The translations under genes and the position numbers were made by a program. Positions 4,560-45,710 of a DNA stretch of 55,238 nucleotides are shown here, piece after piece. The first letter of the stretch is position 1, and every line of letters starts with the position of its first letter. Origin of the DNA: Candidatus Margulisiibacteriota bacterium (GTDB lineage Bacteria; Margulisbacteria; Termititenacia; Termititenacales; Termititenacaceae). The stretch spans positions 1 to 55,238 of the forward strand of contig JAIRZV010000033.1 of assembly GCA_031267055.1 (NCBI GenBank). Reading direction: 5' to 3'. Below the pieces are notes generated by a model, which saw only the letters and a list, made by a program, of their open reading frames with translations, was not told the DNA's origin and ran no database searches.

Positions 4560-4718
4560 CATTTTTTTGTGTTTTTAATAATATGAAATATAAACTGCCT
4601 ATGACTGTTAAGTAAGAATTAAGGGGAAAATCCATACAACAAAAAAAATCGATACATTTTTTGCATATTTGCCGTCGATAAGTGTCTGTATATAGAAACT
4701 ATGCGGGGGAAACTGTCC

Positions 4719-4799
4719 ATGCTAAATAAAATAAAAACGCTGTTCGGCGCATGTGTTTTTCTGCTGGGGATAACAGCGTTTCTGTCGGCCGCCGGTTCT
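4719..4799 (+). other. Sec-type signal peptide of the giant protein
   Basis: Basic n-region (KIK), hydrophobic core LFGACVFLLGITAFL, and an SAAG-type cleavage region. Confidence 0.7.
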
Positions 4800-22700: not shown

Positions 22701-23327
22701 CTGGGCGGCGTGAAATACGCTCCGGCATTAGACGCGACTGCGCTGCCGGTGGTGCAGGAAACTCCGACCGCCGAACCGACCGCCAATATTGTGCTCACGT
22801 ACAGCGAAGCGGCGGCCAAGCAAGTCGACGGCAAGACGGACTCTTTCCGCATCTTCTATCTCGATCCGGTCAAGAATGAATGGGTGATCGTGCCCGGTCA
22901 GGAAGCCAAAGAAACCAACGGTATCACCGCGCACGACAAAGAAAAACGTACGCTGTCTGCTCCGGTCATCGGCTTTGGCATGTACAAGATTTTTGACACG
23001 ACTACCTTTGCGGATAATTTGAAAGATGTGCATATGTTCCCGAATCCGTACAAAGGCAACGACGGCGATCTGTCCAACGGCGAAGACGGCTATGCCAACC
23101 GCGATCAGATCGTGCTCGAAAATATCACGAAGACCACGCGGGCGAAGATCTACACGATCTCCGGCGAATTGGTGACGACGCTGGAAGATCCGAACACGAG
23201 CACGCACAGCCTGAAGTGGGATTTGACCAATAGCCGCGGCGCCAAAGTGGCTTCGGGCATCTACATCATCTTGCTGACGGACGAAGAAGGCCATAGATTT
23301 ATCGGCAGATTGACCGTCGTGAGATAA
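4719..23327 (+). CDS. giant secreted surface protein (~6,202 aa): FG-GAP/integrin-alpha-like repeats, Ig-like module array, FlgD-Ig/T9SS-type C-terminal domain
   Basis: Single open frame 4701-23327. The ATG at 4719 is preferred because GGGGGA lies 8 nt upstream. Signal peptide MLNKIKTLFGACVFLLGITAFLSAAG. Many DxNxDGxxD...GAP...G+VY+ repeats. At least 13 module-boundary motifs of the D-x-x-x-P-P type. C-terminal FPNPY...SGIYI domain. Confidence 0.9.
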   Translation: MLNKIKTLFGACVFLLGITAFLSAAGSYLETENNLYDIPIMTQEGNPTVDTKLTIGKHVFSGAIKQGSNNPFLNNSGGNHRVYTPAAYNVMSTDSNKNYIIPSGENYIHGSGQGEQRYEMRRPNYSTSEKLLPGFPAMAKNMVAKKDDSIFDVYPGTANIINHTDFKISFKIYATLTVTDNGNLSDFQPGNTNKYAFTTPYMNLASLNVIIQETPPGNSTTSTNVWTFDKIMSGNIILRREKTRVSLGGYTADAEVWTTTPFVIPGLRDNLAYGFDFFREGEMESGTTVYFEVQVPRAGDPNNYSQYSHTYITAGVPFLDNIVSKNTETGMSDDISNEVLHSQLYGWTADGGKDINGDGFPDLIVGDPYYKYTNASNGSKQTGRVYVYFGGPDKILDSIKDLPSPDIIIEDRPTIAVGSRDREFGYKVKLADINNDGFADILVGQPSYATDSLSINQGRILIYYGGKWSRDGKPHMNITDKNMIVSPSIIINSDKDILSTGDPYRDPLFGAVFDVGDINGDGYADIVAKIGNDVDYKNNFIYVISGQEISSGTNADLSRLTKHVDLKNNLQRSSIYAVAESEVAIIGDMNKDGINDFAVSYPRLDEGYSQSYSDVRVFYGRKGVLDHGGSYGYTNPNILLMDKSENNDYFGISLAGGDINRDGCADLIIGKLTTSADKNTGKVVVLLGQEGVNKANYTYNGDDPNQTSGGVFAISDPLQPDPAAKETASQFGLKVAVADVNNDSYDDILIGAPYYGGSEIGAVYLVLGTGIEATQKIQDNHFHKFVITGREAHAHYGMTIANLGDFNQNGYNDILIGAPGFYGDSFFRGYPMASGDKNYMTEHNIDIFSNTKGIDNALPGILLVSANPQDQEIAWNESINTINLVLFDRGKAGLEFSSIQVELYDPATDRIVATLLNSAMERGIPNGQSERGSDYDLKSLWLSSGNYNDIGIGLPRHFDDFYSYYSGGNGYNERIASETIGSQILYRYNQTPRFIGLQFKLIPGKNIFADSKDYQLRVKVADRGGLTDISQFDEYRLSKFVLNMSTNEPTFASVSHNYRSSETSGNPGTDPIVEPGTLIKVRDMNFDGLDDFVVAYPNWSGVSNDSNTNTEWYNGKVTLLYGSAAPDFTGSTNATWFYGAKDGETNTSPFDFGASVASARLNMGQTELVNVLLIGSNTGFYPVIADPLLPNTTRTSQEMLGTFVEFNTMQEGDVNALNANNHLGKMIVLNSGSDATPDLIAVMNKTATHYQLIANSGIGSYTKGNWLPIDGGDIGKSLGGEAGATANAVQMIAARINNTDTYPSLVFGLPHKDKVIIHHILDEVDVSENKKSSGIVISSSAASINFGASLAAGYFDVKLNVSGNPVDNSSDPNKPSVQSLAIGAPKAKRSQADTGGTGYVLVIHGDKLQTMDITAKDGMEKLGTQNVNYYLRYGEQLGSNFGSSLVALKYMASPEHLAGYEGSLNRPYHDDYDDLAVGAPEYKMDGETNGKVYIYRGGEKFPTVASTAYARKDRTNLGTALANVGDVQNVRAEFLAIYSTNNGDPKSLDYLRTNTMLDTEPPVVISMFPENNQYEVTLDQKIRFTVEDISGVNSNQLNITRVIEGRDVAVVRSGVIVGGQQSINGGKNFDLQVWDVTDLDNPSLLVGNAALNVMPKRVRYVVSLNNCNWNPSEVVELKITVGDGRMIFTTNADGTVRQRLSPLVREFNYGFIAKYDANDAIKTKEIFGSRETNTYFGSSIAYVGDVNKDGYPDFVVGEYGNNSYGWMSGKAYLFLGDKDIDNMTEPAAEFTLQVGSNSSRFDANSAKFGWRVAPAGDINGDGYDDVAVMAVNSSTSGGEVFVLFGNPDPRIVGKGGLKTERDRIYQVAPAPKSFPWDSDYISYHAVSIRAAANASGPDGLGYGLYGGGDLNGDGYDDLLIGAPYHDEKDIKAAGRVYVLYGGNGLLDIHARKSYKYSSVASSYAGPLMLDNVIYDATQPNSGANSFVPQAFPVGYIPNPDPKSYDMFGWSVLTGINLNGDSFDRVKTFNGISETRNIQISDLLIGAPGVEQQKGKVYIYTGKRPVAANQAVYGVDLQNKSVSGGEPGEKFGSSLANLGDISADDNKGYGSKANNLVGQDFVVGAPGYKNMSGAAYLFVSRPEQGNDININKELTVYGQKPGDQFGYTVANVGSIDNDPMGNNDFAVGAPYYDEINRFDEDGEVTSSVSLTPNVGRVYIFGTSLENTGSEENPDYVLKTSVYPSQVATGKQANAFFGAAISSLGDIDQDFSPEYLVGAPGYEIVDTTSTLNTRSNIGRVYFYTNPDTKSPIVFGPMENVYTFPIPGAPNVDLFTKTPVFDSAGHMTNRPKINYNEPLRFRVFDDRAVKLDSVMVELRPEGKNHVSRYTFVPSQTGRKYYTYVNRKNVDFFLNLGADFYYETTYNLRIYATDQKGNALDYNYEPSSNANARYNGYIYDRFGSGTIGGFNVQRVPWAMADLGTGDQDAARTISERSQYVLPYFEYSFITGTNPTGEPEPDQFELWTTWRPTGSAGSQDTNGFYEPTDNILDYFVTRASLYLKLKSASDGEISSYNILAIPAGAVTSAEEGISFNVIRSVVTTNKINYESVGSNDKRRLVFGEKGTAGMEITVTMNEDGIFTLGVWASDVSGNSMPEPRLRTFVHDEYPPKIVTGLFFETQVSGSVTTVTTVNYLPAAGSTHNADDCAINFAIVDKGAGLDVVSTNGAIDLDKFQIYLSFGRDTTTNYNLDTVITVTINVATLNTAGETEYVDISSTMNFWKLITENLTVNARHMDYPDGSNSAKPTTLSIGILEQKFTYLDWVNILVKATDNAGHGDTITYSYRVSPDYRPPQVTYGQPPLINEGEYTWGQLTISLNAYDDVNVAYLVFTVAEDDNAVPSIWNTALLAATNNNGFVLPIPNPIVQSRSITLPVTWSVFVSSSMQTSTDAVTSEIITYNLVEYIRVTESAKDYSGLARLELRPSDTARANPPDGLYHILVAFEDEQHNRSDWTTCSIILDAESETGGPVMPIVRVNYHVDSPTPNNVDVTGLNIPHAQNMPLYFSKDTSVVDLYVYAKDTIVSPQPDAMPSGWLIGDDTADGRPLGVVVSVYSPNGNRDTSGNAITVWRPRGTDGKRASSDILLNYRTQIEARDVNYSGYMMRKIPAFDLSDYVTNNELGEVIDLYVNFADNDMFLPKTFLETGRIDPSDGNSDLWSDYLFTAADAKQTIINARYPTVSYYDDKYDLESSTGIFNYHPFNYLNGLVDAPIWDSKGVTSSVQRKDVISAANAFGRESTLSRNVTANFSEAPAHIRLYYDNTLPELTDLLALGGTAGGQEYSARSYSQNKGYLRFSAKYRDRISTNLMSMPLEVHKLYYQILAVTASGEDTMVWVDTKGDSYFKDRQKKVGSSADGYWRSGSYRSYDDSGLDAGQWIYLTSPTNNKLDRDPGNTTLSTALYKYLKDARNHNKNDLSYVENEENWVTINEGYNSWLTNPESSPNINYDIPSPKQRTNLTPEEEASLEAARYKAILTVKDADGQDITVSANKFATENLTARYMVSANLSLWSVLDISDDKLREGSAYNNWETLSPVEIPVSLDVGVMYFLRVAARDQAGNFSKIAISNPVYIDNTIPNEPSYNYMDGIVLNRNRFDIDFSDNYSGIYNLRLSKGDDTIEPIYLDNQAVTKELLREWRDITTTDRPDDVSSDRTFDYKQQVLNNWKVKPDIWDKLAEGEKTKFYFYLEDAVGLSYSTIGNKGPEFSFVRDTLAPTFDPSWDSSPNGVVSIVDETSKNIHYYTQDETLGLNVKPLEAHLIAVTDLASDWVVATSNTDPRDPRRIDPTLGYFEDEYHAYDDLRHIQDFSFEWEGDHEIRKPWYVQLSKAMERTYKSNIDFGNTQLTRPVEDTRSTINIAFLSARTAAKNDVDMFEDIAAIGSNGNYALAVHFDIDHHKDYLGDGSYDKWEEYTWGGVFATFNAGIDNDRRDATYNYTIGVMLNAEKIDTYAEPRSLIADEDSETPKKYFGYFGLVVETGGRRKVADQRVHSTRDGENWNTWKLLTTNVVVSRDAVDKTVTISIRHLNALEHEIPDVDNGSTKTKTVSANMPYVIKLVPAAQLHGTLLIDSLYVLPGVNVTPHLVASVSQNANGYDFELSTEQKLNVYTILAYDRVGNLAVQNPELLRDNTKPTWSYTDSLEDWVDEPLNRVITSNERGSGVVEGIQAGKRFIAYYHIPPRNVPGKEINSLSVPEYRKAQLRRNELEDKGLLVSANGEVTRNSLPGGRLYSNAMEEFYDAAGKEIYDANGKPMLGSGYIAGFFQAVEDDGMPIRMYNYEIVEATSSTKDVTGEHIWEYNQVRDQGYGLPSNRDKVNSRRYPTEIDTSAAGISSAGSYKLRVQAENLFGVTSDWVETEPIWYDLDAPTISIEIEPSVGEYIQVATGDYAYVMAGNTYNTQDGPTRAIEDMYVPSENGGYILQPSGWYRDSINITVNAVDILRFGKGELGADVYTIGGVGVGQIHVVTNNHGYNPANHSYDSYVFQGENNNLDGYWGTANNTTLNKVITFNLTAEGANSFKVWAVDKFGRSTPWIEKNFDLNIDRKPPVLKVYQGGQTQTTEILDPEKNTLSTYWSSANVGIGFAVDYSDGLGVGTKELHWWVNNEKQTSIALSSIPAYGVTSSIPYYPRGTTESTTMVPREGVVGGFVPKDYSPNNDDRFPPLVLNDAERKQLRDAGILDSVMSDQYDHYEWQKDSVYTEAELIAKLNEIAFVDKQKIIDAWRYSTKQTGSGERGLHYHTIDSEAFSLLDDGYFMVSVNVVDKFGNVSNTGNFGYVLKDTGKPDIQVNLGGSFQSEWYVGGEPYDDYAKTGGGPLDELTGDHMYHEGILFRAQVGDMFNNNVLVTRSYYPNEKITIPDYYDNIKVRTPGSGVRKVQVWINKEEPLSIEIDEGNMNQWPSLASTRFGFSINKYYGESNIAADDFASKNFVIKNNGINMIKYMVEDFAGNAVWPYEDDVTKRQWNEVLGSWVYPSDKNVIRGIKVDTRPPRDVELKIITNNNREAEGTTWTFYNSAYTDTRPDEDNYPLYTKWQNVPVRFSGKDDGIGVWYAYFSASENALSVSCDQGVTNSMDTDDQYVKTDSWENIAKLSKGGNGFNEDPGFKYATKAVGGEQGILDYASYRIVQMGEIQGTRNLTLRMADFFGQNYTVPRSSIEEVSATFNYSDPDFATANYLSVSALSKGLYDAVSNNMGGYTVKFVENDVSGNEIHQFISGGFYDMPTKNREVKDTVNSGNMVDGLDKWGGYTIKTTTISAGVVDGKEIINELTVYLWDMEVDGREDHRTATVTADRQIVLDNKIYPSAIMPVTLPIKDLNYGSGQWQELQKDEAVANGLWTSQAELKVEYVHDEGDELSGITHIMFGGDIVSVRFLGTGNVTTTESYKPGEWVPYVYRSAGLTNNYIVTLRDLLIEGTRNVSIIGVRDRADNQLVSRDVHNVTVDMHSVEFYYDVGMPRDVTNRYLIKNQHGTVLNNKYYVGVPTYNLELDFNGAAYYDILEYSKETSYTSVRSNNYADISADTPGLPRVDGKPDFWVAINDIAMKENKGDGEKTLVIRLFDRGTKDMTEQNMLTITYNHWVDNTPPTLSITGLEDKDSKWYTPNKDFNLHVVDDGAGIASVVYQIRNDDTKTVDTVTRNYAFDSGERYPKATSLNYIKIARSGKNQIDLRVEDGVGNITIYNVDGIKVNTNPPVISEVSPLQGALSGNVIYTNQKALPLRVSGTGIDYLQFEVNTPVTYNKTAQVSRNANNGYAVTVTEQGVSGDGMYTLDILAYDKLYERYGTSGAFYATASYTVLLDRQPPAFSIETGSTGRITVVDDSKVISGRISLQGVSDLQSPVQVFYMINNTGSQAWPAHISGVSSDVWTIYIRDVIEQSGRSNGSYSLRIYAQDLAGNMSATSDVSSDPYKTAAFNVPDGYIMAPRGMVIRGLDIGASANLNEQQQAMQMASSKLGGVKYAPALDATALPVVQETPTAEPTANIVLTYSEAAAKQVDGKTDSFRIFYLDPVKNEWVIVPGQEAKETNGITAHDKEKRTLSAPVIGFGMYKIFDTTTFADNLKDVHMFPNPYKGNDGDLSNGEDGYANRDQIVLENITKTTRAKIYTISGELVTTLEDPNTSTHSLKWDLTNSRGAKVASGIYIILLTDEEGHRFIGRLTVVR
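5740..7200 (+). other. FG-GAP repeat region 1 (about seven blades; approximate borders)
   Basis: DINGDGFPDLIVGDP, DINNDGFADILVGQP, DINGDGYADIV, DMNKDGINDFAVSYP, DINRDGCADLIIG, DVNNDSYDDILIGAPYY and DFNQNGYNDILIGAPGF, each followed by a G+xxVxxG strand. Confidence 0.75.
7960..9340 (+). other. FG-GAP repeat region 2 (degenerate; approximate borders)
   Basis: DMNFDGLDDFVVAYP...GKVTLLYG, SLAIGAPKA...GYVLVIHG, YDDLAVGAPEYKMDGETNGKVYIYRGG. Confidence 0.55.
9920..11630 (+). other. FG-GAP repeat region 3 (approximate borders)
   Basis: DVNKDGYPDFVVGE...GKAYLFLG, DINGDGYDDVAVMA...GEVFVLFG, DLNGDGYDDLLIGAPYH...GRVYVLYGG, LLIGAPGVEQQKGKVYIYTG, DFVVGAPGYKNMSGAAYLFV, DFAVGAPYYD...GRVYIFG, EYLVGAPGYE...GRVYFY. 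Confidence 0.75.
11640..22300 (+). other. array of Ig-like/beta-sandwich modules (approximate borders)
   Basis: Recurrent module-start motifs: DEYPPKIV, PDYRPPQVTY, DNTLPELT, DNTIPNEP, RDTLAPTFD, RDNTKPTWSY, LDAPTISIE, DRKPPVLKV, DTGKPDIQV, DTRPPRDVE, DNTPPTLSI, NTNPPVISE, DRQPPAFSIE. These are followed by motifs such as 'A.D.AGN.S' (e.g. AARDQAGNFS, AYDRVGNLA, AQDLAGNMS). Confidence 0.6.
23037..23324 (+). other. C-terminal FlgD-Ig / T9SS type-A-sorting-like beta-sandwich domain
   Basis: FPNPYKG...AKIYTISGELVTTLED...HSLKWDLTNSRGAKVASGIYIILLTDEEG...GRLTVVR matches the consensus shape of Por-secretion-tail/FlgD_ig domains (PNP..., iy...G.lv, W.g.n..G..v.sGiY). Confidence 0.65.
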
Positions 23328-30664: not shown

Positions 30665-31930
<1,266 letters not shown>

Positions 31931-31940
31931 ATACTTATTT

Positions 31941-32963
31941 TTATTGTTCCGTGTTTTCTTGTGCCAACAAAGCCCTAACCTCGCTAATCAATTGTTCTTT
32001 ATCCGGTATATAGTAGGTATAGCGCGATGCAAAAATATTATTTTCCAGACCACCTAACGCATACTCTGCCATAACGTCGTGCTTGTCAGCGCATAAAACT
32101 ATTCCGATTGCTTGCTGGTCATCCTCCGCCTTAACTTCAGAGTTATAGTAATTTAGATACATATTCATTTGTCCAATATGTTCCGGCGTTAAGTGCCCTG
32201 TTTTTAGGTCGATCAGCACATAAGCTTTCAGCATTTTGTTATAGAAAACCATATCGACATAATAATGATTACTGCCTAGCGTTATTCTCTGTTGGCTACC
32301 CACGAACATAAAACCACGCCCAAGTTCTAACAAAAAATCTTCAATGTGCCGGATTAGTTTGTACTCTAAATCTTTTTCAAGCAGCGGTTTCTCTTCACGC
32401 ACTCCTAAAAACTCAAAAACATATGGGTCTTTGAGAATATCCTGCGGCTTGTCTAAGACGACACCTTGTTTCGACAGTGTTAAAATTGTCTGCTTATTCG
32501 CTTGGCCGTCTGATAGCAAAAGTCGTTCAAATAACGATGTTTCTATCTGCCGTTTTAATTCGCGGACTGACCAGCCAGAGTTTAGGCATTCTTGCTCATA
32601 AAATGACCGCTTGTCTTTATCGGAAATTATTAAAAGCTCACAAATGTGCGACCAAGACAATTTGCCAGACACTGTCTGGCAAATTGGGTAGGCCAGGTAA
32701 AAATTACGCATATTTTGTAAATTAGAGCGTGAAAAACCCGTTCCTAACTCTTTGGTTAGTTTTTTTGCTAGTTCTTTTAACAATTGTTTTCCGTATTGTG
32801 CTCTAACATCGCCATTTTGTTCATGGTCTACAATGAGCCGTCCTATTTTCCAATATGTTTTTACTAGGTGTTGATTTACTTCGCGCGCTACATTTGACCG
32901 GGTCTGCTCTATCAATAATTTTATCTGCTTAGTAATATTATCAATATCTAGGATTTCCGCCAT
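31941..32963 (-). CDS. DUF1016 (YhcG-like) PDDEXK-family nuclease-domain protein
   Basis: N-terminal LVKTYWKIGRLIV...QYGKQLLKELAKKL...GFSRSNLQNMRNFY is typical of DUF1016. C-terminal core YYVDMVFYN...YVLIDLKTG is a D...(D/E)xK nuclease core. Confidence 0.8.
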   Translation of the reverse strand: MAEILDIDNITKQIKLLIEQTRSNVAREVNQHLVKTYWKIGRLIVDHEQNGDVRAQYGKQLLKELAKKLTKELGTGFSRSNLQNMRNFYLAYPICQTVSGKLSWSHICELLIISDKDKRSFYEQECLNSGWSVRELKRQIETSLFERLLLSDGQANKQTILTLSKQGVVLDKPQDILKDPYVFEFLGVREEKPLLEKDLEYKLIRHIEDFLLELGRGFMFVGSQQRITLGSNHYYVDMVFYNKMLKAYVLIDLKTGHLTPEHIGQMNMYLNYYNSEVKAEDDQQAIGIVLCADKHDVMAEYALGGLENNIFASRYTYYIPDKEQLISEVRALLAQENTEQ

Positions 32964-33003
32964 TGTCGACCTCGGTGTTTATCTTAACATACTGTACACA
33001 AAA

Positions 33004-33075
33004 AACACCGACGGTTCGATAACTGTGCCGGAGGTTTTGCGACCGTATCTGGGCGGCTTGACTAAAATTGCGTAA
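33004..33075 (+). pseudogene. orphaned duplicate of the last 24 codons of serS (in frame, own TAA)
   Basis: 60 of 72 nt identical to 31859-31930 by hand alignment. Translates NTDGSITVPEVLRPYLGGLTKIA* versus [23 protein letters not shown]. Confidence 0.85.
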
Positions 33076-33081
33076 ATAGTT

Positions 33082-34095
33082 TTAAGCTATTTTCTTAATG
33101 TAAATCACGCTGTAATAACTGGGCAGCACATCGAACGCCTGTCCGCCGCCAGTGTTGTTGTTCGTTTCAGAAATGCCAGTCTTATTGCTATTTACACTAG
33201 GGGTGGTTGTCCATGAATTTTCTGCTCCGGCTCTAGTACCATCATACACAAAATATGTTCCGTAGGGATGAGTATCAGCCTCTCCATCACCAGCAGCTGA
33301 GTTAGGTGCTTTGTGATCATGTCCATTATCTGTAATGCTGTGTTTATGCGCTGGCAAATGCTGTGTACCTAAAGTCATTTGCCCATCGCCGGTAGCGGCC
33401 TTGTTGCCGTTGCCTTTGATAAATTTATCTTCAAGATTTGGCGTTAAGTTCAGATTTTTATTAGCCGCAGTACAGGCGTACCAGCCGGGCAAGGTTGTAT
33501 CATCCAACCACCCTGCGCCGTCATACATCAGTATGGTTCCTATGGGCAACTCTTTTTGAAAACTCAAGCTGCTTACAGTCGTTTTTAAAGCGCTTACGTC
33601 GATCTGCAATCCACTTACATCAGTTTGTAATGTGCTCAGGTCACTGGCGCTAAGTTTGTTAGCCAAAGCTGTCGCCACCGCTTTTTCTGTGGGTATCTTG
33701 TTATCGTTGGCCTTGGTCGTGTCAGTCTCCAGAAGTGTGGTTTTAGTCAGCGTGCCGAGAGTTCCGGCTGTTGTTGTTTTGGTTAAAATATCATCAGCTG
33801 TGCCGGCGCCGATCTTATCCTGCTTACCGCTCAAGCCAGTACTTATCGTAGTACTCAACGCATCGAGATTTTTCCCAACCAGTTTTGAGGTCGGATAGTA
33901 GCTGTCGCTGGCAGAGCTAGCGGTCAAAGTCGCCGTGGCGTCTGTTGAATATAATTGTTTGTTGGCGACCTTTTCTTTAGTATGTAAAGCATTTCTCATT
34001 CCCGTAGCCGAAAGGCTTTTGCCAGTGTTGATATTGTAACTTGCTCCTTTAAAATCCGTGTCTGTTGCGTCCGTATAATTGCCTGCGTTTGCCAT
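33082..34095 (-). CDS. phage tail-fibre-like protein with C-terminal tail-collar (MdpB/COG4675-type) domain, copy 1
   Basis: Tail-fibre-type repeats YYPTSKLVGKNL and KIPTEKAVATAL, and a heptad-like LSTLQTDVSGLQIDVSALKTTV. Collar domain PIGTILMYDGAGW...GWYAC...LEDKFIKG...LPAHKHS...GGGQAFDVLPSYYSVIYIKK. ATG 34095 is preferred over 34101 because of RBS spacing (AGAGGGGG). Confidence 0.8.
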   Translation of the reverse strand: MANAGNYTDATDTDFKGASYNINTGKSLSATGMRNALHTKEKVANKQLYSTDATATLTASSASDSYYPTSKLVGKNLDALSTTISTGLSGKQDKIGAGTADDILTKTTTAGTLGTLTKTTLLETDTTKANDNKIPTEKAVATALANKLSASDLSTLQTDVSGLQIDVSALKTTVSSLSFQKELPIGTILMYDGAGWLDDTTLPGWYACTAANKNLNLTPNLEDKFIKGNGNKAATGDGQMTLGTQHLPAHKHSITDNGHDHKAPNSAAGDGEADTHPYGTYFVYDGTRAGAENSWTTTPSVNSNKTGISETNNNTGGGQAFDVLPSYYSVIYIKKIA

Positions 34096-34145
34096 AAACA
34101 TACCCCCTCTTTTATACTGTAATTAACTATATGATAATTCACAAA

Positions 34146-34160
34146 TTGCTAATTGTCAAG
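34146..34160. promoter_or_regulatory. 15-bp operator-like motif TTGCTAATTGTCAAG in divergent promoter region 1; overlaps the TTGACA -35 of the collar-1 promoter
   Basis: 14/15 identical to 35476-35490. Ends exactly 29 nt before the XRE ATG in both cassettes. Minus strand reads CTTGACA-N16-TATCAT. Imperfect dyad TTG..AATT..CAA. Confidence 0.6.
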
Positions 34161-34188
34161 CATTTGCTGTTAGAATATAAACCTGTTC

Positions 34189-34515
34189 ATGGATTTGAAG
34201 CAGATTTTTACCCAAAATTTGCGGCGTTTGCGTGCTGAGTCCGGTGTTTCCCAGATGAGACTAGCCGAGCTTTGCGGCACTTCGGCCAGCTATATCGGTG
34301 CGATCGAGATCGGGATCAGATTTCCTTCGATGAAGCTATTGGCTAAAATTGCCGAAGCGCTGAGCGTAAAACCTTATCAGTTTTTTCTGGAAGAGGAGGA
34401 TAACGCCGTGCCTCTGCGCCGGGCGATGTTCAGGCCGGACAAACAGAAATATTTGCTGCAAAAATATATTCTGACCCAACTGGAAACTATGCAGCGGCAG
34501 GTGAAAAGATATTAA
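34189..34515 (+). CDS. XRE-family helix-turn-helix transcriptional regulator, copy 1
   Basis: NLRRLRAESGVSQMRLAELCGTSASYIGAIEIGIRFPSMKLLAKIAEALSVKPYQFF is a canonical Cro/C1-type HTH. Confidence 0.85.
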   Translation: MDLKQIFTQNLRRLRAESGVSQMRLAELCGTSASYIGAIEIGIRFPSMKLLAKIAEALSVKPYQFFLEEEDNAVPLRRAMFRPDKQKYLLQKYILTQLETMQRQVKRY

Positions 34516-34536
34516 AAGTACGCGCCAATTTTTCGA

Positions 34537-35406
34537 TCAAACCATTTTTTTAATATAGATCACTGTGTAATACGCCGGCACTACATCGAACGCCGTGCCG
34601 CTTCCGGTATTGCCGATAGCGCCTCCGGAGATTGTAGGAGAACCCCCTGCGGCTCCAGTGTTGCCGGTGATGCTGTGTCCATGAGTAGCGTTGTCGCTTC
34701 CGGTGCTGCCGGTAATGCCATGTCCATGAGCGGCGCCGTCGTTTGCTGTGGAGCCGGAAACAGTGGCGGTATGCGCATGAGAGCCGGTAGTGTTTGCTAT
34801 AGTAATACCCGTCGTAGCTCTACCAGTATTCCCGTCTATGGCGCCTTCCCAATAGCTATAATTATTGCCATTTCCATTTAACCTCTCATAGGTTTTTATA
34901 GAGTGCGTATGTCCCGGATCAGTGACCGTGTGCCCGTGCGTTCCGCCGGTTATTGTCACGGCCAAAGTGCCATTGCCATGCGAATGAGTAGCCGAGCCAC
35001 TGGCGGCAGCTAATGTGCCAACATCATGTGAATGGCTTGCCGAACTGCTGGAGGCAGCCAAAGTGCCAACACCATGCGAGTGTTCGCCGCCGCTGATGGT
35101 TAATTCGCCTAATGTATGATTATGACTGGGCAGATTATCTACCGTTAAAGTTGCCGTCCCGCCACCAGCGCCGCCAGATGTTGCGCCACCTTTAATAAAT
35201 CTATCCCGCAGATCCGGCATAGTTACCTCGCCACGCCCGGGTATGTTTTTTTTCTGCCCGTCGCAGATATACCAGCCGCCACGTCCGTCCAGCCAGCTGC
35301 CGTCCATCAACATGATCATGCCTACTGGGAAAAAAGTTAGATCGAGCATATCGCTGGCCAACAGTCGTTCCCCGCTGGCTATTTTGGTGTCGAATATTCT
35401 ACTCAT
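34537..35406 (-). CDS. tail-collar-domain protein with nine HxH motifs, copy 2
   Basis: PVGMIMLMDGSW...GWYICDG...LRDRFIKG...LPSHNH ... GSGTAFDVVPAYYTVIYIKK. The central insert repeats G-x-x-H-x-H (EHSHG, SHSHD, THSHG, THGHT, GHTHS, SHAHT, AHGHG, THGHS). Confidence 0.8.
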   Translation of the reverse strand: MSRIFDTKIASGERLLASDMLDLTFFPVGMIMLMDGSWLDGRGGWYICDGQKKNIPGRGEVTMPDLRDRFIKGGATSGGAGGGTATLTVDNLPSHNHTLGELTISGGEHSHGVGTLAASSSSASHSHDVGTLAAASGSATHSHGNGTLAVTITGGTHGHTVTDPGHTHSIKTYERLNGNGNNYSYWEGAIDGNTGRATTGITIANTTGSHAHTATVSGSTANDGAAHGHGITGSTGSDNATHGHSITGNTGAAGGSPTISGGAIGNTGSGTAFDVVPAYYTVIYIKKMV

Positions 35407-35475
35407 GGTAAGCCCCCTTTTTTATTTACTTATAGTTATATTTACCATTAGTCAGTAATAAATTATACTTGTTAT

Positions 35476-35490
35476 TTGCAAATTGTCAAG
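35476..35490. promoter_or_regulatory. 15-bp operator-like motif TTGCAAATTGTCAAG in divergent promoter region 2; overlaps the -35 of the collar-2 promoter
   Basis: Minus strand reads TTGACA (35488-35483), a 15-nt spacer, then TATAAT (35467-35462). The motif ends 29 nt before the XRE-2 ATG at 35519. Confidence 0.6.
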
Positions 35491-35518
35491 AGATATATAC
35501 CTAGACTATAAGTCTGGA

Positions 35519-35833
35519 ATGAGTTTGCGAAAACTTTTTATCGCTAATTTGCGCAAGATCCGCCGCGCCTCCGGCATTTCGCAAATGGAGTTGGCCGAGC
35601 TTTGCAACACTTCGGTTAATTATATCGGCACGATCGAAATGGGCATCAGATTCCCTTCCATGGAGATGATCGAGAAAATTGCCGCCGCGCTGCAAACCAA
35701 ACCTTACGAGTTTTTTCTGGAAAATTCCCCCGCGCCGGTCAAAAAACCGATCAGGCAGATCCAGCCCGAATTATTAAGAAAATATGTGCTCAATCAATTG
35801 GACAAGGTAACGCGCAAAATTCGCAAATACTAA
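35519..35833 (+). CDS. XRE-family helix-turn-helix transcriptional regulator, copy 2
   Basis: MSLRKLFIANLRKIRRASGISQMELAELCNTSVNYIGTIEMGIRFPSMEMIEKIAAALQTKPYEFF. The start is set at ATG 35519, aligning with copy 1. The ORF-track TTG at 35483 lies inside the operator motif. Confidence 0.8.
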   Translation: MSLRKLFIANLRKIRRASGISQMELAELCNTSVNYIGTIEMGIRFPSMEMIEKIAAALQTKPYEFFLENSPAPVKKPIRQIQPELLRKYVLNQLDKVTRKIRKY

Positions 35834-35853
35834 TTTCGGGTTTATTTTTTTAA

Positions 35854-39770
<3,917 letters not shown>

Positions 39771-41097
39771 ACATGGCTTCGGCAAAAGCCCCCGGGTCAA
39801 AATAATCTCCAGCGGCGATGGCCTGCGCCGCGTATTCCAGGTAGTAATTTCCTCTGGACAACGAATCAAAGTAATAGCTCACTCTGTCCTGCCTGACTTC
39901 CGTATAGGCTGGCCGGATGTTTGATTTTAAACTGTCTGCTAAAGTGCTCTGGGTGTTCAACTGCTGGAAATCAACAGGCATTAACGCCGCCGGCAGCTTG
40001 TCCGCGCAAACTACAAATGTGTTGTCTTCATAAGAATTAAAATTTGTTCTGACAATATAACTTTCTCCTTTTTTAAAAGAGCTGACTTTATTCCGCTTCA
40101 GGTCAAAATACTCCGTCCTGACCTTAAAAGACTTGTCAGCATGTTTGTCCTGTTTTTTGAGATACTGAGTGATCTCCAGTTTATAAAAAGCCGCGCTGCC
40201 GGCGTTCCCTTTGGCGGTCACTTCTGTTTCCAGGGTTTTGGCGTCGGCAAATTTGGCGATATCCAGTTCCGCTGGCTTGGCTTTGGCCTGTGCTTTTCCA
40301 GAATAAACTTCCGCGCCATCGACCGTCAAAGCGCAATTTAAGTTGCCGTTAAAATATTTCGCGCCGATATTTTGCAGTGCCATGATCACTTGAGCGTTGT
40401 CATGCGTGTTGTACCATCTGTTGTTGTGCCTTTTCTCATTGAGCACATAATTCAGCAGTGGCAAAGTATACTGTTCCATTTCCGGTAGGTCTGCGAGGAC
40501 GCGCATAGCCAGAGCCGTAAGTTTGACATTTGTGGTATGCCGCCAAAAAACAAGCCGCGTTGGTTTGAACAGCGCTCGGCCGGCTTGGTCAATATAAATA
40601 TTAGTAATGATTTCTTTTTTCAAATTCTCAAATTCTTCAAGGAAGACCTTATATTTATGCAGTAAATATAAGCGGTAGAGTTTATCCTCATTGGTCAACT
40701 GCTCGGACACTTTTCTCCGTTCAATAAAAGAAAGCATATTTTCTCCAGCCAGAGTTAATTCATAAAGTAAATAATGTCTATCCAGTTTGGCCTGATAAGC
40801 GTCTAGATCCCCTTGAGCCAACGCCTTTTTCAGAGTTTTAACAAGCTCTCGACGCATATTTTCATCTATGGCCAGGCCGAGGCTTTGGACATGATTAAGC
40901 GCGGACAAAGTATATAGGCTTAAATAATGCGAATAACTGGCGCCGCCGGGCCAGTAACCGTATAAACCATTGCTGGCTTTGTATTTATTGTTCTCCGCTA
41001 AAATCAGGCTTATATTTTTTTTGGCCTCTTTTTTTTGCGCTGGAGAAGATTCAGGCGATTTATAGGCCACGGCATTGCCGAGCAGCATACCCAGCTT

Positions 41098-41109
41098 TTG
41101 TTCCCAGCA
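41098..41109 (-). other. CxEQ thioester motif (C-W-E-Q) of the alpha-2-macroglobulin
   Basis: Plus strand TTGTTCCCAGCA is minus-strand TGC TGG GAA CAA. Confidence 0.7.
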
Positions 41110-44100
41110 GGCGTGCGGATAATAGATAAGGTAGTCCGCTGGCTCTTTCAGCAAATCGGAAAGGTCGCGGTCAAAACTGAGCTTGACCGCGCTAAGGTCT
41201 TTTAGCAAATTTTCTTCAGGTTCGGTCAGTTTGAGACTGGTCTTGCCGGAAAAATTGCCAGCCTGATCGGTTAAAATCAACTTGTTGATAGCGGTCACTT
41301 TTTTCGTTGTGTTTCTATAAACCGGCAAGGAAAATTTCACCTTGTCTTGGTTTTGCTTGGTTTGGGCGGCGACCAGCAGGTTAAGAGTTTTTGCGGTTTC
41401 TTGGTAAAACTCCGGAATTTGAATGTTGAAAACAATTTGTTTTTTATCCGCAATGGTAAAATCCTGAGTTGCTCGTCCCAGCGCCGCCGCGTCCAAATCC
41501 CATTGTGCTTCTAGAACGCCGGCTTGTTCTGCATTAGTGTTATTAAATATGACCACTCCGCTGTTGGATTTATCGGAGCTTCTAAGAAAATTCGGCAGAG
41601 CGCTTTCGATCAGCAAAGCCTGGCTGGATTTTAAGATCAATTGTCCGTGCCCAAACAAATCCGGCCCGTTGTCGGCAAAAATCAGCACTCTAAATTCACC
41701 GGCATTGTCCGGCAAATGAAAATTAAAAGAGCCGGTCTGCTCCACGGTGGATTTTAAGTAAGGCGCAAAATAAATAATGTCTTTAAATTCTTTCCGCACT
41801 TGGCCGGAATCATCCAGCAATCCGCCACCGCCGCCAGCGACCGCGCCTTTTTTACCAAAAAGCCTGCGGCCAACAATTCGATTGTAATTGGTGTAGTTCT
41901 GCACAAGCAGCGGGATCGCGGGGTTCATGGCCTCGCCGATATTTGTCCGCAAAGACGCCAGATCAAATAAGGCGTTATTGACCACCAAGGCGCAGTAATT
42001 GGTCGGCTGGCCGCTCTTGGTGTTGCTGAAACTGACCTGGACATTCACTTGGTCGCCGGGAGAATATTCTTGTTTTTCCGCTTGAACCCGCACCTTGATA
42101 TCCCGTTCTTTTTTGCGGACCTTGATTTGCTGATAGCCTATTTTAAATGATGGTTTGCCCAAATCGATTTGCTGCCGGCCGTATTTGTCCACCTGCACCG
42201 GCTGGCCTTTTCGGCCCTGCACTAAACAAACCGAAATATAACAATTCGGATAATATTCCTCTTTAATTTTTAAATCCAGGACCGGGGCATTATTGTTGAT
42301 TTCAATCAGCTTGTATTCTTTGATGGAATTAGTTTCGATAGTGACTAGACCGGCTGCCGTGCTGTAAGGGGATTTTACTAATATTTTTAGATCATCGCCA
42401 GCCTCATAAGTTTTTTTGTCCGTGAGAATATCGATACGGTCATGGTTATAACGTCCCCAATTATAATTGCCGCTGTTAACATAAAAGTCCAGTTTAGTTG
42501 TGGTGATGCGCCCGCTGCTATCCGTGCCTTTAGCAAGAATATAATAATGCCCGGCTCTGGCAAAAGATTTTTTAAGGGTCACGGAATTTAATTTGGTGGT
42601 GGTTATAACGCCTTCTGCTACTTTTTCTGGCTTGATGTTATTGAGATACTCAAAAGCATTGCCCACGCCTTTTTCTCTGACTGTGTAAATTTTATCCATA
42701 AAAATAGTGTATTCGATTTGTGCGGACACTAATTTATCGTCATTGCTCAAAGTGATGAAATCAAATTCCGCGCTTTCATTGATCTTACTGCTAAAGCCTT
42801 TTTGTTTAATGCCGATCTTGAACTCAGCCGGATAAACCAAGTAGTTAAGATATTGCGAAACTTTTTCGTTTAAACCTTTAGGGTCTTGCAACGTAAACTC
42901 CATAGTCAGAGTGATAGGATGCTTTAGCTGTTGATTGAGAATATTCTGCCGCCAGACAGTCTGGCCTGCAGGGCCGCTGTTCAGCTCTTTTTTCAGGGAA
43001 ATCGAATTGAAATAGTCGGGCTGATAAAATGTGTAATTATTATAGGGACTGTCCCAGTCCCTGTAGTAATAACTGCCGTTGTGATACTTATAGACTGATT
43101 GAATGGGAGCGTCTTTAATTGGCTGACCGGAATAATAATCGGCGGAAATAGCTATTGTTTCGACCGCGCCGGGGTAAGTGAAACCACGCTCCGGCTTGAC
43201 TCTAAATTTAGTCCGCGGAGCGCGGTAATCCGCCACCAAAAAACTGCTGACTCTAAAAAAATAATGGTCTTTTGTTCTTATCCCAATAGTGTATTCCCCC
43301 AGCTTGCAATCATTTTTCAGCCGCAAGCTGTCGACGGCGCTGGAATCAGTTTGCAGACCGAGCTCTTTTTTATAAACAAGGTCCCATTGCGGATCTCTGA
43401 TCTCAACCGTCACATTGGCTTTGCTGTAAGCCAGATCATTTTCATTGTATTCACGGACATAGAGCTTGTAATTAATCTCCGCGCCGGGTTTGTAGATCGG
43501 GCTGTCGGAAACGACAAAATAGCGTTTGTTGTTTCCCCGCTCTAAAAAACTATCGAAGTCAGTCTGCTGAATTCCAAACTCCCAGGCCTTGAGATTAGAG
43601 TCAAAATTATCAGCGGTTGTAGAAAGTATCGCGGTGTCTTCGCCTTTGCTGGCCACAATATAAATGTCCGCTTTTAGTTTTTCTAGTCCTAGAGGAATAA
43701 CGCAATAACCGTCCTGATTGGTTTGGGCTGAAGTTATTTTTTTGCCTTTGCCATCGTAAAGACTTACCGTAACGCCTTCCGCCGTCTTGCCGTTACTTAA
43801 ATTTGTGGTCCAGATCGCTATATCTTTCAGGGACTTTTTGACAATCAAACCCAGATCGGTCACGTTGACGATTGCGTTTTGAGCGTGCTGAGATGCTCCC
43901 AGCCGCGCGGCGTCCTCTGGGGACGGAGCGATGGACACAAAATATATCCCCGGGTGCTGCAAATCTATTTTTTGATACCAGACATAATTGTCCAGATTGC
44001 TGGTCACGCTGTGGCTGGCCGCTAATTTGCCAAATCTAGACAGTTTGGCCTTAACGTTAATTTCCTGGCTGTCATTGTCGAACAAATCGCTCCGCATTGC

Positions 44101-45710
44101 CGCGACAATTTTATTTTTATCGGCCTTATACACAGACGCAATTGTGTTGCGGATATTTTGGGATTTAAAAGAATAATAAGGATAATTTATCTCGACCACA
44201 TTAATGCCTGTCTCTAACTCCAGCAATGGCATGGCTTCCGCTAAAACAAGATCGAACTCGATTTCTGCATTTAACTTTTCCGCGTCGGTGTTTTCTAAGT
44301 TGGCGGAAATTACAAAATTATAAGTTATTCCGTGCTGAAACAAATCAGTGGACAGCTCCATGTTTGTAGAACCGTAGCTTGAATAATAGTAATCGTCGAG
44401 ATATAGCTTTTCCAGATCCAGACCCTCCGGCCAAGGAGTGATTTTAAGATGCTTAAAAAATTCTTGCGGAGAGACTCTTTTGGAAAAAACAAAATCAATG
44501 TAAGACAAAATTCTATTCGCGGAAGATACGCTTTCCAGCGTAAAATCTTTCTCGATATAGTCATTGCCGGTTTCAATGGAGACTCCGCTGGCGCTTTTCA
44601 CAAAGCCGTTTTGGAAAGATCTTAAAGTCAAAGAGGCGTTTTTCGGCAGATTTAAACTGGGCTTAATTAAATATCTGCTGGCATTATGTTTTGTGGCGAT
44701 AACGCTCGACCGCACTGTTTTATTGCCTTTTTTCGCTTCAATATAAAGCTGCTCTTCCAATATTTTTTTTATATTATCGCCAAACAAAGGAATCGCAGAA
44801 TATTCATTTTTTGTTTTGTCTTCCTGCAGAGGATTAACTATAAAGCAGGGTTTATTCTCGATAGTTTGATAATAAGCATCGATCACCAGGGGTTTAATAA
44901 AAGAAAAATCCAGACTTTTGCCGTTGTAAACAAGCTGGCCTGGATAAAGCTTGCCGTATTTTAGGTCTGATTCTATAAAATATTTTACGGTATTGGCGTT
45001 CAGCCTGCGTTCCGCGCCGTCCAGTTCGGGGATGAAAATCAGCTTTTCCGCGGCTATTTCTTCTCCGACGGCAAAAATGTCTTTGTTAAAAACAAAAGCC
45101 AGCGTGTCGTCATATAAAAAACCATTCGGATGCATCGCGGTGATCTTTACGCTGCCCAAGCTATAAGGAGTTTTTACTGGTTTGCTCTCAACTGCCGCCG
45201 GCTCCTTGTAATTTGAGGCCAGATTTTTTAGATCAGCGTCAGCTGCCGTCAAAACTTTAACTGTTCTTTTAATGAGGACTTTGGTCGACGCTGCTTGGCT
45301 TGCCGTTATTTTGAAGTTAAACAGTTTTTGCAGATCATCTTTAAAATAATAAGAAACGCCGAGTGTTGATAATATTAGCGTGCTTAATAGAACAGACGTC
45401 CAGATTTTCTTATGGCTTCTGGCAGGCTTCTTTGCTTCTGGAGATTTTTCTTGCCGCGGCATAATAGCGTCTCTTTTACTTAAATTTTTTGCTTTATTGT
45501 ACCTGATTATACCTAAAAATCCAGCAAAAATGTGTTTGCCAATAAATGTAATTCACATCACGGCCGCGCCGCTTGTTACTAAAACTTGTCTTTGTGCCTG
45601 CTCCGCTGGCTTGTGAAGCTCGAGTAGAGGGGTAAAGAATTCAGTTGTTCGGAAATCCCGAATAACTAAAAAGTAATTTGCAAAATATGACAAATACGCT
45701 TTTATTGCCG

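Follow-up and report, generated by a model that had tools for sequence, protein, structure and literature searches.

The window analysed here is a stretch of 55,238 nucleotides of contig JAIRZV010000033.1 (assembly GCA_031267055.1), a metagenome-assembled genome (MAG) of a 'Candidatus Margulisbacteria bacterium' whose closest named relatives are Ca. Termititenax aidoneus and Ca. T. persephonae. Between serS (30680-31930, plus strand) and pyrG (35869-37485, plus strand) it carries two cassettes, each composed of a gene for a phage tail-fibre-like protein on the minus strand and a gene for a small XRE-type helix-turn-helix (HTH) regulator, which faces it divergently from the plus strand. According to the open reading frame (ORF) list, the interval contains five genes: these four, located as the initial annotation had them, and a YhcG-type gene described in the last section. 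The features of the two cassettes are as follows.

33082-34101, minus strand: fibre gene 1 of the 'long' subfamily (LBK68_01630), an ORF of 339 aa with a 100% match to P0001; its parts are a conserved N-terminus of ~50 aa, fibre repeats (YYPTSKLVGKNL, IPTEKAVATAL), a helical neck, a collar-type tip and the C-terminal strand PSYYSVIYIKK
33142-33336, minus strand: hypervariable insert of fibre 1, residues ~256-320, between LPAHKHS and the C-terminal strand (from column entropy and comparison with the orthologue)
34131-34159, minus strand: promoter of fibre gene 1, TTGACA-17-TATCAT (11/12), followed by a GGGGG Shine-Dalgarno site; it lies inside a 45-nt block that is identical in Ca. T. aidoneus
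34189-34515, plus strand: XRE regulator 1, 108 aa, an HTH_3/HTH_31 domain with a C-terminal extension of ~45 aa (Pfam, 1e-10 to 2e-11)
34516-35850, no strand: extent of the cassette 2 indel, from comparison with Ca. T. aidoneus
34537-35406, minus strand: fibre gene 2 of the 'short' subfamily (LBK68_01640, P0104), an ORF of 289 aa; its parts are a 25-aa N-terminus, a collar scaffold, an ascending and descending 'needle' rich in His-x-His (HxH) motifs, a hypervariable tip and the C-terminal strand PAYYTVIYIKK
34663-34757, minus strand: in-frame 45-nt tandem repeat, 2.1 copies, HxH units of the descending limb (tandem-repeat search)
34807-34926, minus strand: hypervariable tip of fibre 2, residues ~161-200, between TDPGHTH and TGITI..GSHAH (from entropy and the short-form alignment A2)
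34961-35079, minus strand: in-frame 48-nt tandem repeat, 2.5 copies, HxH units of the ascending needle (tandem-repeat search)
35462-35489, minus strand: promoter of fibre gene 2, TTGACA-16-TATAAT (12/12), the best σ70 match of the region, with the palindrome ATTTGCAAAT in its spacer
35519-35833, plus strand: XRE regulator 2, 104 aa from ATG 35519 (the TTG-extended ORF begins at 35483), from Pfam and the alignment to XRE 1

For fibre 1, ATG 34095 is the likely start; the NCBI start, two codons after that of the 339-aa ORF, gives a protein of 337 aa. XRE 2 almost certainly starts at ATG 35519 because the Met encoded there aligns with Met1 of XRE 1. The C-terminal and HTH peptides quoted in the initial annotation are correct, and the internal features that it read in the two fibre proteins were found again: fibre repeats together with a helical neck, which it had called a coiled coil, in copy 1, and an HxH-rich insert in copy 2. 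In the latter we counted nine HxH motifs, and the two in-frame tandem repeats of this copy are confined to the HxH region. The two fibre proteins are 38% identical over the 77 aa of the collar scaffold and 71% identical over their last 24 aa. The regulators are indeed paralogous, as had been proposed, with 51% identity (E=3e-39).

Fibre tips and the family of paralogues

The description of both fibre proteins as collar-type survives in part. Membership in the Pfam Collar family (PF07484, threshold 24 bits) was not borne out: copy 2 scored 15.4 bits (E=0.018) and copy 1 gave no match, both copies thereby missing the gathering threshold, and the Collar and Phage_fiber profile searches proposed as a check ended below threshold or without a match. 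Among the rows of our two alignments (A1 for the long form and A2 for the short form, 44 rows each, 88 in all), a single one matches Pfam Collar at E<0.01. What holds is homology to phage fibre tips, which emerges from PHROGs, from profiles of solved tail fibres and from BFVD folds. The best PHROGs families are annotated as 'tail collar fiber protein' for fibre 1 (1.8e-11) and 'tail fiber protein' for fibre 2 (8e-13), the matched families being 1800, 8469 and 2097 (1e-11 to 1e-13). The A1 profile finds the tail fibre 9qgo_A in the PDB at 1.4e-11, and the A2 profile finds 9nxk_A at 6.4e-8 and 8kec_A at 7.9e-7; the match of A2 to the tip of T4 gp37 (2xgf) has an E-value of 0.03 and is not significant. 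Pfam Gp10_C matches 15 of the 44 short-form members and four of the 44 long-form members. The AlphaFold model of copy 1, compared with BFVD, retrieves collar, baseplate and fibre proteins with E-values from 1e-6 to 5e-5.

At the level of sequence and profiles, both fibre proteins are similar to the tail-fibre tip superfamily of the T4 gp10_C/gp12/gp37 type, and we regard their homology to phage receptor-binding tips as solid. The motif LP.GTILM...W..CdG...PnL...F..G....LP.H.H ... P.YY..IYI.K is common to the fibres described here and to T4 gp12, the C-terminal part of T4 gp10, the gp37 tip, 9qgo, 9nxk and 8kec. In the short form, as in the gp37 tip, the HxH repeats furthermore ascend to a variable head and descend from it, and we take this layout to resemble the T4 gp37 needle. 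A metal-bound HxH trimer like that of gp37 and gp12 is a prediction for fibre 2, and the observations that concern it are the nine HxH motifs and the non-significant 2xgf match given above. Unlike the T4-type proteins, the fibres described here are encoded outside a virion structural module, lack a homologous baseplate-binding N-terminal region and stay below the Pfam Collar threshold. Searches of the PDB with single sequences were weak or empty. Neither NCBIfam nor PADLOC contained a match to a fibre protein, except for a far sub-threshold chance match of copy 2 to RNase HI in NCBIfam (E=0.008). Cultured phages match fibre 1 over its C-terminal half only, with ~30% identity, and do not match fibre 2; viral contigs align to residues ~115-337 of fibre 1 only.

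The two genes belong to a large family. The long form has at least 23 members with LBK68 locus tags in this MAG and at least 21 loci in Ca. T. aidoneus (N-terminal motif search), and the short form has at least six members in the MAG and at least eight in Ca. T. aidoneus. Together, the subfamilies amount to at least 29 paralogues per genome, or ~30 dispersed cassettes, and the fibre genes with their regulators make up ~3% of the genes of a small genome. A metagenome scan for the short subfamily returned five short contigs only, and an exact-sequence look-up of three paralogues of the MAG returned no record. Across the family, proteins are 230-400 aa long. The long form begins with a conserved N-terminus of ~50 aa (MANNYTD..Y.I.TG..LSAAGM.AALNTKEKVANK), which is followed by fibre repeats (YYPSSKLVGKNL, IPTEKAVATAL), a helical neck and the collar scaffold, with a hypervariable insert between LP.HTH and the C-terminal strand P.YY.VIYI.K (A1). 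The short form has an N-terminus of 25 aa and the same scaffold, in which the HxH series ascends and descends around a hypervariable tip (A2). The number of HxH repeat units differs between relatives in A2, and hence the length of the needle appears to vary by gain and loss of repeats.

Variability is unevenly distributed along these proteins. In the long form, column entropy is 0.9-1.4 bits in the N-terminal half versus 2.5-3.2 bits in the insert, and in the short form it is 0.8-1.3 bits in the scaffold versus 2.5-3.0 bits in the tip. Judged from the alignments, variability is thus concentrated in the predicted distal tip, and the insert of fibre 1 is a predicted ligand-binding surface. The opposite end of the protein is peculiar to the family. 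A search of 1.84 billion representative proteins with the N-terminal 133 aa of fibre 1 found only 46 relatives, almost all of which are known family members or short unnamed proteins that align through their own N-terminus; in this collection the module has no relatives outside the family and none that is viral.

As a separate observation, the relatives of the family include a 218-aa protein of the diplomonad Hexamita inflata, a eukaryote (P0090), which is a homologue with a coiled coil and a collar (E=2.7e-13) and may have been acquired by horizontal transfer from bacteria or phage.

Regulators, genomic context and selection

The Pfam scores confirm the HTH assignment of both regulators. XRE 1 scores 41.8 bits against HTH_3 (PF01381) and 44.2 bits against HTH_31 (PF13560), and XRE 2 scores 44.1 and 39.2 bits, respectively, the thresholds being 23 and 27 bits. 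The Peptidase_S24 domain of CI/LexA-type cleavable repressors has no match in these proteins of 104-108 aa, and RecA-mediated derepression is unlikely for this reason. The ~55 top matches of the XRE profile are all proteins of Margulisbacteria or unnamed JGI/ENA metagenome proteins, after which the scores drop sharply to generic HTH proteins; by this measure the XRE family is lineage-restricted. The regulators form at least three clades, and every clade pairs with both fibre forms.

In order to survey the pairing, we called ORFs in 39 related loci from four genomes and in the loci found by exact look-up, and searched them with fibre hidden Markov models (HMMs) derived from A1 and A2 and with an iterated XRE HMM. 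The denominator was the set of distinct related fibre genes whose upstream sequence extended to at least 300 bp (n=28). A divergent HTH/XRE gene was found upstream of 27 of these 28 genes, at a distance of 26-199 bp in 26 cases and of 655 bp in one (L012). Even at the sole miss of the scan (L046, 6439), Pfam places an HTH gene 72 bp upstream, and locus L048 shows the same fibre-XRE pair. By contrast, none of 116 collar genes on viral contigs had a divergent XRE gene within 900 bp. Co-occurrence elsewhere, on which the initial annotation had made its case depend, is therefore the rule among the relatives of these genes and absent among their viral homologues. A distant homologue with a Pfam Collar domain (L049) is located in a phage-like co-directional module with Peptidase_S74. 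The arrangement differs from type II toxin-antitoxin pairs in that the genes are divergent, the control regions measure 75-130 nt and the partner of the regulator is a fibre protein of 230-400 aa.

Within 32950-35900, the two fibre promoters rank first and second among the σ70 matches. A Shine-Dalgarno site (GGGGG or GGAGG) precedes 23 of 23 fibre genes versus three of 23 XRE genes, and both XRE genes of the window are among those that lack one. By inspection, a -10-like hexamer lies 5-12 nt before the ATG of the window XRE genes (TAGAAT, 12 nt upstream, in the case of XRE 1). Such proximity to the start codon suggests leaderless or short-leader XRE transcripts, and in these respects the window XREs recall the leaderless cI transcript of phage λ. 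Since a near-consensus promoter needs no activator, we infer that the XRE is a repressor of its fibre gene. The 15-mer shared by the two cassettes, put forward by the initial annotation as a possible operator, turned out to be the -35 hexamer TTGACA with the next 9 nt, a promoter feature common to many cassettes. An Rfam scan of 31900-35900 gave no match.

In Ca. T. aidoneus, the syntenic locus (L002) reads glyA, dCMP deaminase, pheA, serS, the orthologues of fibre 1 and XRE 1, and pyrG, with neither a YhcG gene nor cassette 2. There, the stop codon of XRE 1 directly precedes the pyrG promoter and start, AATGCTATAATCCCCAG-ATG(pyrG), from which we conclude that cassette 2 is an indel of ~1.33 kb. 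Local tandem duplication, the explanation given in the initial annotation, was rejected: the two fibre genes come from different subfamilies of a family whose members, at least 29 in number, are dispersed, and Ca. T. aidoneus has a single cassette between serS and pyrG. Nor is local clustering of cassettes unique to the window, because locus L046 of Ca. T. aidoneus (BGZN01000010.1, 363-11337) contains three short-form cassettes in a 7-kb span, with nifS/nifU, a small toxin-antitoxin-like pair and gyrA/gyrB interspersed among them. Other cassettes lie between rpmA and obg, beside thiamine-synthesis genes and beside ABC-transporter genes.

The 55-kb window contains no capsid, tail (sheath, tube or baseplate), lysis or integrase genes; family searches of the window gave the same outcome as the initial annotation. 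Among 150 flank proteins of 40 other loci, the recurrent families are housekeeping ones, together with AAA_14/DUF4143 (five times) and PIN (three times), and no phage structural, integrase or transposase family recurs. Combined with the pairing survey, these results support the proposal that the window encodes stand-alone receptor-binding-type proteins outside any prophage, each with a dedicated divergent XRE gene.

Separately, we note the accessory genes next to the cassettes. The AAA_14/DUF4143 ATPase genes recur beside them (L047, 6060-7256; L048, 6373-7575, where a further HTH gene lies beside the ATPase gene), and the neighbours also include the three PIN genes and a DUF2442/DUF4160 pair. 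It seems that the cassettes accumulate, along with other accessory genes, in small flexible islets.

The cassettes could be selfish or accessory modules gathering in such islets, in which case the fibre might be a secreted bacteriocin-like or lectin-like factor, an anti-phage decoy or defence protein, or one half of an addiction-type pair. Their indel behaviour fits this explanation, cassette 2 being absent from Ca. T. aidoneus and another cassette being placed between rpmA and obg, and so do the neighbours, which comprise the YhcG gene (a PDC-S02 defence candidate), PIN, the DUF2442/DUF4160 pair and the AAA_14/DUF4143 ATPases. Furthermore, the XREs, for which NCBIfam and PADLOC gave nothing beyond generic HTH matches, resemble the restriction-modification 'Control_protein' (~5e-12) and capH in PADLOC. 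However, the fibre proteins match no PADLOC family, no transposase or integrase was found, nor any convincing terminal repeats around cassette 2, and two divergent genes, one of which encodes a structural protein of 290-340 aa, are unlike the operon of a toxin-antitoxin pair. Hypervariability focused on the tip of a conserved scaffold also favours ligand binding over an enzymatic or toxic activity. We consider this explanation quite unlikely.

The selection acting on the cassette was estimated from the window genes and their orthologues in Ca. T. aidoneus, with dN and dS denoting nonsynonymous and synonymous divergence and ω their ratio. Identities refer to aligned residues.

Fibre 1: 67% identity, dN 0.247, ω 0.23
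Fibre 1, insert only: 48% identity (the lowest), dN 0.40 (the highest), ω 0.31
XRE 1: 84% identity, dN 0.081, ω 0.13
serS: 91% identity, dN 0.052, ω 0.095
pyrG: 99% identity, dN 0.008, ω 0.024

The ω values of 0.23 for the fibre and 0.13 for the XRE indicate that both cassette genes are functional and under purifying selection, while the dN of fibre 1 is ~5 times that of serS. The control region of 93 nt is 92% identical between the two species, as opposed to a dS of 0.34-1.09 in the flanking genes, and the perfectly conserved 45-nt block in it spans the fibre 1 promoter. Exact tracts of 40-127 nt are common to 47 of 136 pairs of Ca. T. aidoneus paralogues, P0068 combines a long-type N-terminus and a needle tip in one protein, and in Ca. 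T. aidoneus and Ca. T. persephonae many contigs break off within a fibre gene (L010, L016, L021, L023, L027, L030, L031, L033 and L036). These three observations point to mosaic evolution by recombination. As the family breaks assemblies, the true copy numbers are probably above our counts.

These data bear on a further option of the initial annotation, namely that the locus is a decaying prophage remnant, a repressor and a tail-fibre gene left behind and now functionless. Temperate phages typically carry both types of gene, and distant homologues do occur in phage structural modules, as in L049 and on viral contigs. Decay is nevertheless difficult to reconcile with intact ORFs in ~30 copies per genome that keep the same two-gene layout in at least four genomes, with ω of 0.13-0.23 between species, with a control region conserved to 92%, or with near-consensus promoters and strong Shine-Dalgarno sites. 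No other phage gene lies nearby, the flanks at ~40 loci are housekeeping genes, and the XRE partner is missing from all 116 viral homologues. A remnant is therefore highly improbable.

A candidate repertoire for partner recognition

Our preferred reading, which we hold with somewhat less than even confidence, is that the cassettes form a lineage-specific, expanded and recombining repertoire of domesticated phage receptor-binding fibres that serve to recognise partner cells and are each controlled by an XRE switch of their own. Ca. Termititenax and related bacteria are ectosymbionts, as yet uncultured, that attach specifically to the ectosymbiotic spirochetes of termite-gut protists, and the finding gains its meaning from the fact that our source is one of these relatives. 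Each cassette would be an autonomous unit, in which a monocistronic fibre gene with a near-consensus σ70 promoter and a strong Shine-Dalgarno site stands against a divergent, weakly translated XRE gene whose promoter abuts that of the fibre. An XRE dimer would bind the shared control region, hold the strong fibre promoter off and regulate its own synthesis in the manner of a CI-type switch, until some cue or a stochastic event derepresses the cassette and the fibre is made in quantity. The fibre would then trimerise, its conserved N-terminal part serving as an anchor to a cell-surface or particle structure, and its hypervariable distal tip would bind a ligand on the surface of the partner cell, presumably that of the spirochetes to which the bacteria attach. 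In the long form this tip would be the collar insert, and in the short form the end of a metal-stabilised HxH needle. With ~30 diversified and recombining cassettes, a cell would possess a broad and individually controllable binding repertoire.

Several results weigh against this reading. No Sec signal peptide or other export signal is evident in the fibre proteins by inspection of the sequence and a hydropathy scan, no signal-peptide predictor having been used; the N-terminus of the long form is hydrophilic, with a maximum 10-aa hydropathy of 0.32. We also identified no anchor or secretion partner. The AlphaFold2 monomer models are of low confidence (predicted local distance difference test, pLDDT, 63 and 57.5), as would be expected of obligate intertwined trimers, and PDB fold searches with the fibre models were non-significant or empty. 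Operator-like repeats likewise found no statistical support. We compared exact direct and inverted repeats in 26 control regions with dinucleotide shuffles and found a marginal excess, with a summed longest-repeat score of 236 versus 216.8 ± 8.5 for the shuffled sequences (z about 2.3), whereas operator-like repeats in the two control regions of the window were not significant (p=0.98 and p=0.22). Since the excess is marginal overall and absent from these two regions, we do not claim operators.

Two suggestions of the initial annotation, a regulated adhesin and fibres for a tailocin encoded elsewhere, remain the leading explanations. According to the second, the proteins are spare or alternative fibres of a tail-like particle, which may be a tailocin, an extracellular contractile injection system (eCIS), a gene transfer agent (GTA) or a resident prophage; the N-terminus would dock to a common baseplate, the tips would retarget the particle, and the XREs would gate each fibre. 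A conserved N-terminus with variable tips and no signal peptide would fit assembly in the cytoplasm on a particle released by lysis. Among the fold and profile matches, the closest are to baseplate and fibre proteins (T4 gp10, gp12 and gp37, and a Photorhabdus eCIS fibre), these PDB fold matches being non-significant, and GTAs are known to keep fibre genes apart from their main cluster. On the other hand, no tail, sheath, tube or baseplate gene, which an adjacent cluster of this class would contain, lies in the 55-kb window or recurs among the 150 flank proteins of 40 loci, and none of the cassettes is followed by a fibre chaperone gene. No relatives of the N-terminal module, viral or other, were found, and the different 25-aa N-terminus of the short subfamily would require a second docking site. 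One σ70 promoter and one regulator per fibre are also unlike the control of a late operon. We regard a particle encoded elsewhere as somewhat unlikely.

The adhesin repertoire has a precedent in the MAT fibres of Bdellovibrio bacteriovorus, a set of 21 paralogues with a conserved N-domain and variable tips that act in prey recognition (PMC10769870). Both families combine an invariant N-terminal part with variable, swappable C-terminal tips and evolve as mosaics (PMC10769870), and a chromosomal repertoire of many such paralogues is likewise found in the Termititenax lineage, as a functional analogy. In terms of function, the MAT family is the closest analogue that we can point to, by virtue of this shared organisation. 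There is, however, no detectable sequence homology between the two. The MATs have a signal peptide, a β-rich N-domain of ~130 aa and β-helix shafts, often with an S74 chaperone-protease (PMC10769870), whereas the Termititenax-lineage fibres measure 230-400 aa, have collar/gp10_C-type or HxH-needle tips, and show neither the signal peptide nor the β-rich domain, to judge from the hydrophilic N-terminus of the long form in the hydropathy scan and from the relatives of its N-terminal 133 aa. Each of the latter has a divergent XRE gene, a pairing not reported for MATs in the passages searched (PMC10769870).

Cellular use of collar domains is not new in itself. The proteins of COG4675, labelled 'MdpB microcystin-dependent protein', are stand-alone cellular collar proteins, and JGI gives this label to several members of the family described here. 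In Ca. Solibacter usitatus, a group of tail-collar paralogues is cellular, not part of a prophage, and bears signs of diversifying selection (PMC3174227). No partner XRE is mentioned in the passages searched, and the expansion is far smaller (PMC3174227). The family described here differs from that group by an N-terminal module of its own and by two tip architectures. The fusion of PilV with a collar domain is another documented cellular use.

For the regulators, the closest likeness is to CI/Cro switches and to the C-proteins of restriction-modification systems, which are small HTH_3 proteins encoded divergently from the gene they control, with back-to-back promoters, as are the XREs of the cassettes. 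The latter differ in having no S24 domain and in that their partner is a structural fibre and not cro, a lytic operon or a nuclease, and their control of it is a prediction. In the searchable literature, which did not cover the original description of the Termititenax genomes, we found no description of the family or of fibre-XRE cassettes, nor anything that connects Margulisbacteria with contractile injection systems, or tail fibres with ectosymbionts of termites. What is of a known kind, then, is a cellular repertoire of phage-fibre-like adhesins, and what is new is the collar- or needle-type tips, the lack of a signal peptide, the one regulator per gene and the share of ~3% of the gene content.

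How Ca. Termititenax and its relatives recognise their partner has, to our knowledge, not been described in print, and receptor-binding-type proteins with hypervariable tips are a concrete candidate for this role. The cassettes would extend the idea that bacteria living on bacteria domesticate phage receptor-binding proteins as adhesins, for which experimental proof has so far come from the Bdellovibrio MATs only, and they would add a new regulatory design of one XRE switch per fibre. Being compact, with conserved scaffolds and natural diversity at the tip, such proteins could also serve as engineerable binders. A bolder version of the adhesin repertoire, and in our judgement an unlikely one, is an array of independent CI-like switches, each gating one fibre, by which clonal epibionts would display different subsets of fibres stochastically or on cue. 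If true, this would be phase variation of adhesins by dedicated transcription-factor switches instead of DNA inversion, slipped-strand mispairing or recombination with silent cassettes, and it would set which spirochete partners a cell holds.

Neighbouring genes of the window

The fifth gene of the serS-pyrG interval lies next to fibre gene 1.

31941-32963, minus strand: YhcG/DUF1016 PDDEXK gene, PADLOC candidate defence family PDC-S02

At 33005-33078, the serS 3' end is present a second time, as a 74-bp copy ~85% identical to the first, and it is the stop codon and the downstream 'TAAATAGTTTT' of the second copy that match Ca. T. aidoneus. The YhcG gene therefore resides in an insert of ~1.07 kb that carries a replacement serS 3' end (window 31931-33078). 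No integrase is present at this insert.

The other genes of the window (mreC, glyA, dCMP deaminase, pheA, PBP1C, an α2-macroglobulin-like ORF of 1914 aa, scpAB, gpsA and plsY) are housekeeping genes. At 37482-45462 on the minus strand, the PBP1C-like transglycosylase/transpeptidase ORF (795 aa) overlaps the end of the α2-macroglobulin-like ORF; both were identified by reading their translations and not by a family-library search, and their pairing is a known and ordinary one in bacteria. Finally, an ORF of 6208 aa at 4701-23327 on the plus strand contains at least eight FG-GAP (integrin-like) repeats and a weak C-terminal match of the FlgD_ig type, and is a candidate giant surface protein or adhesin of the same epibiont.

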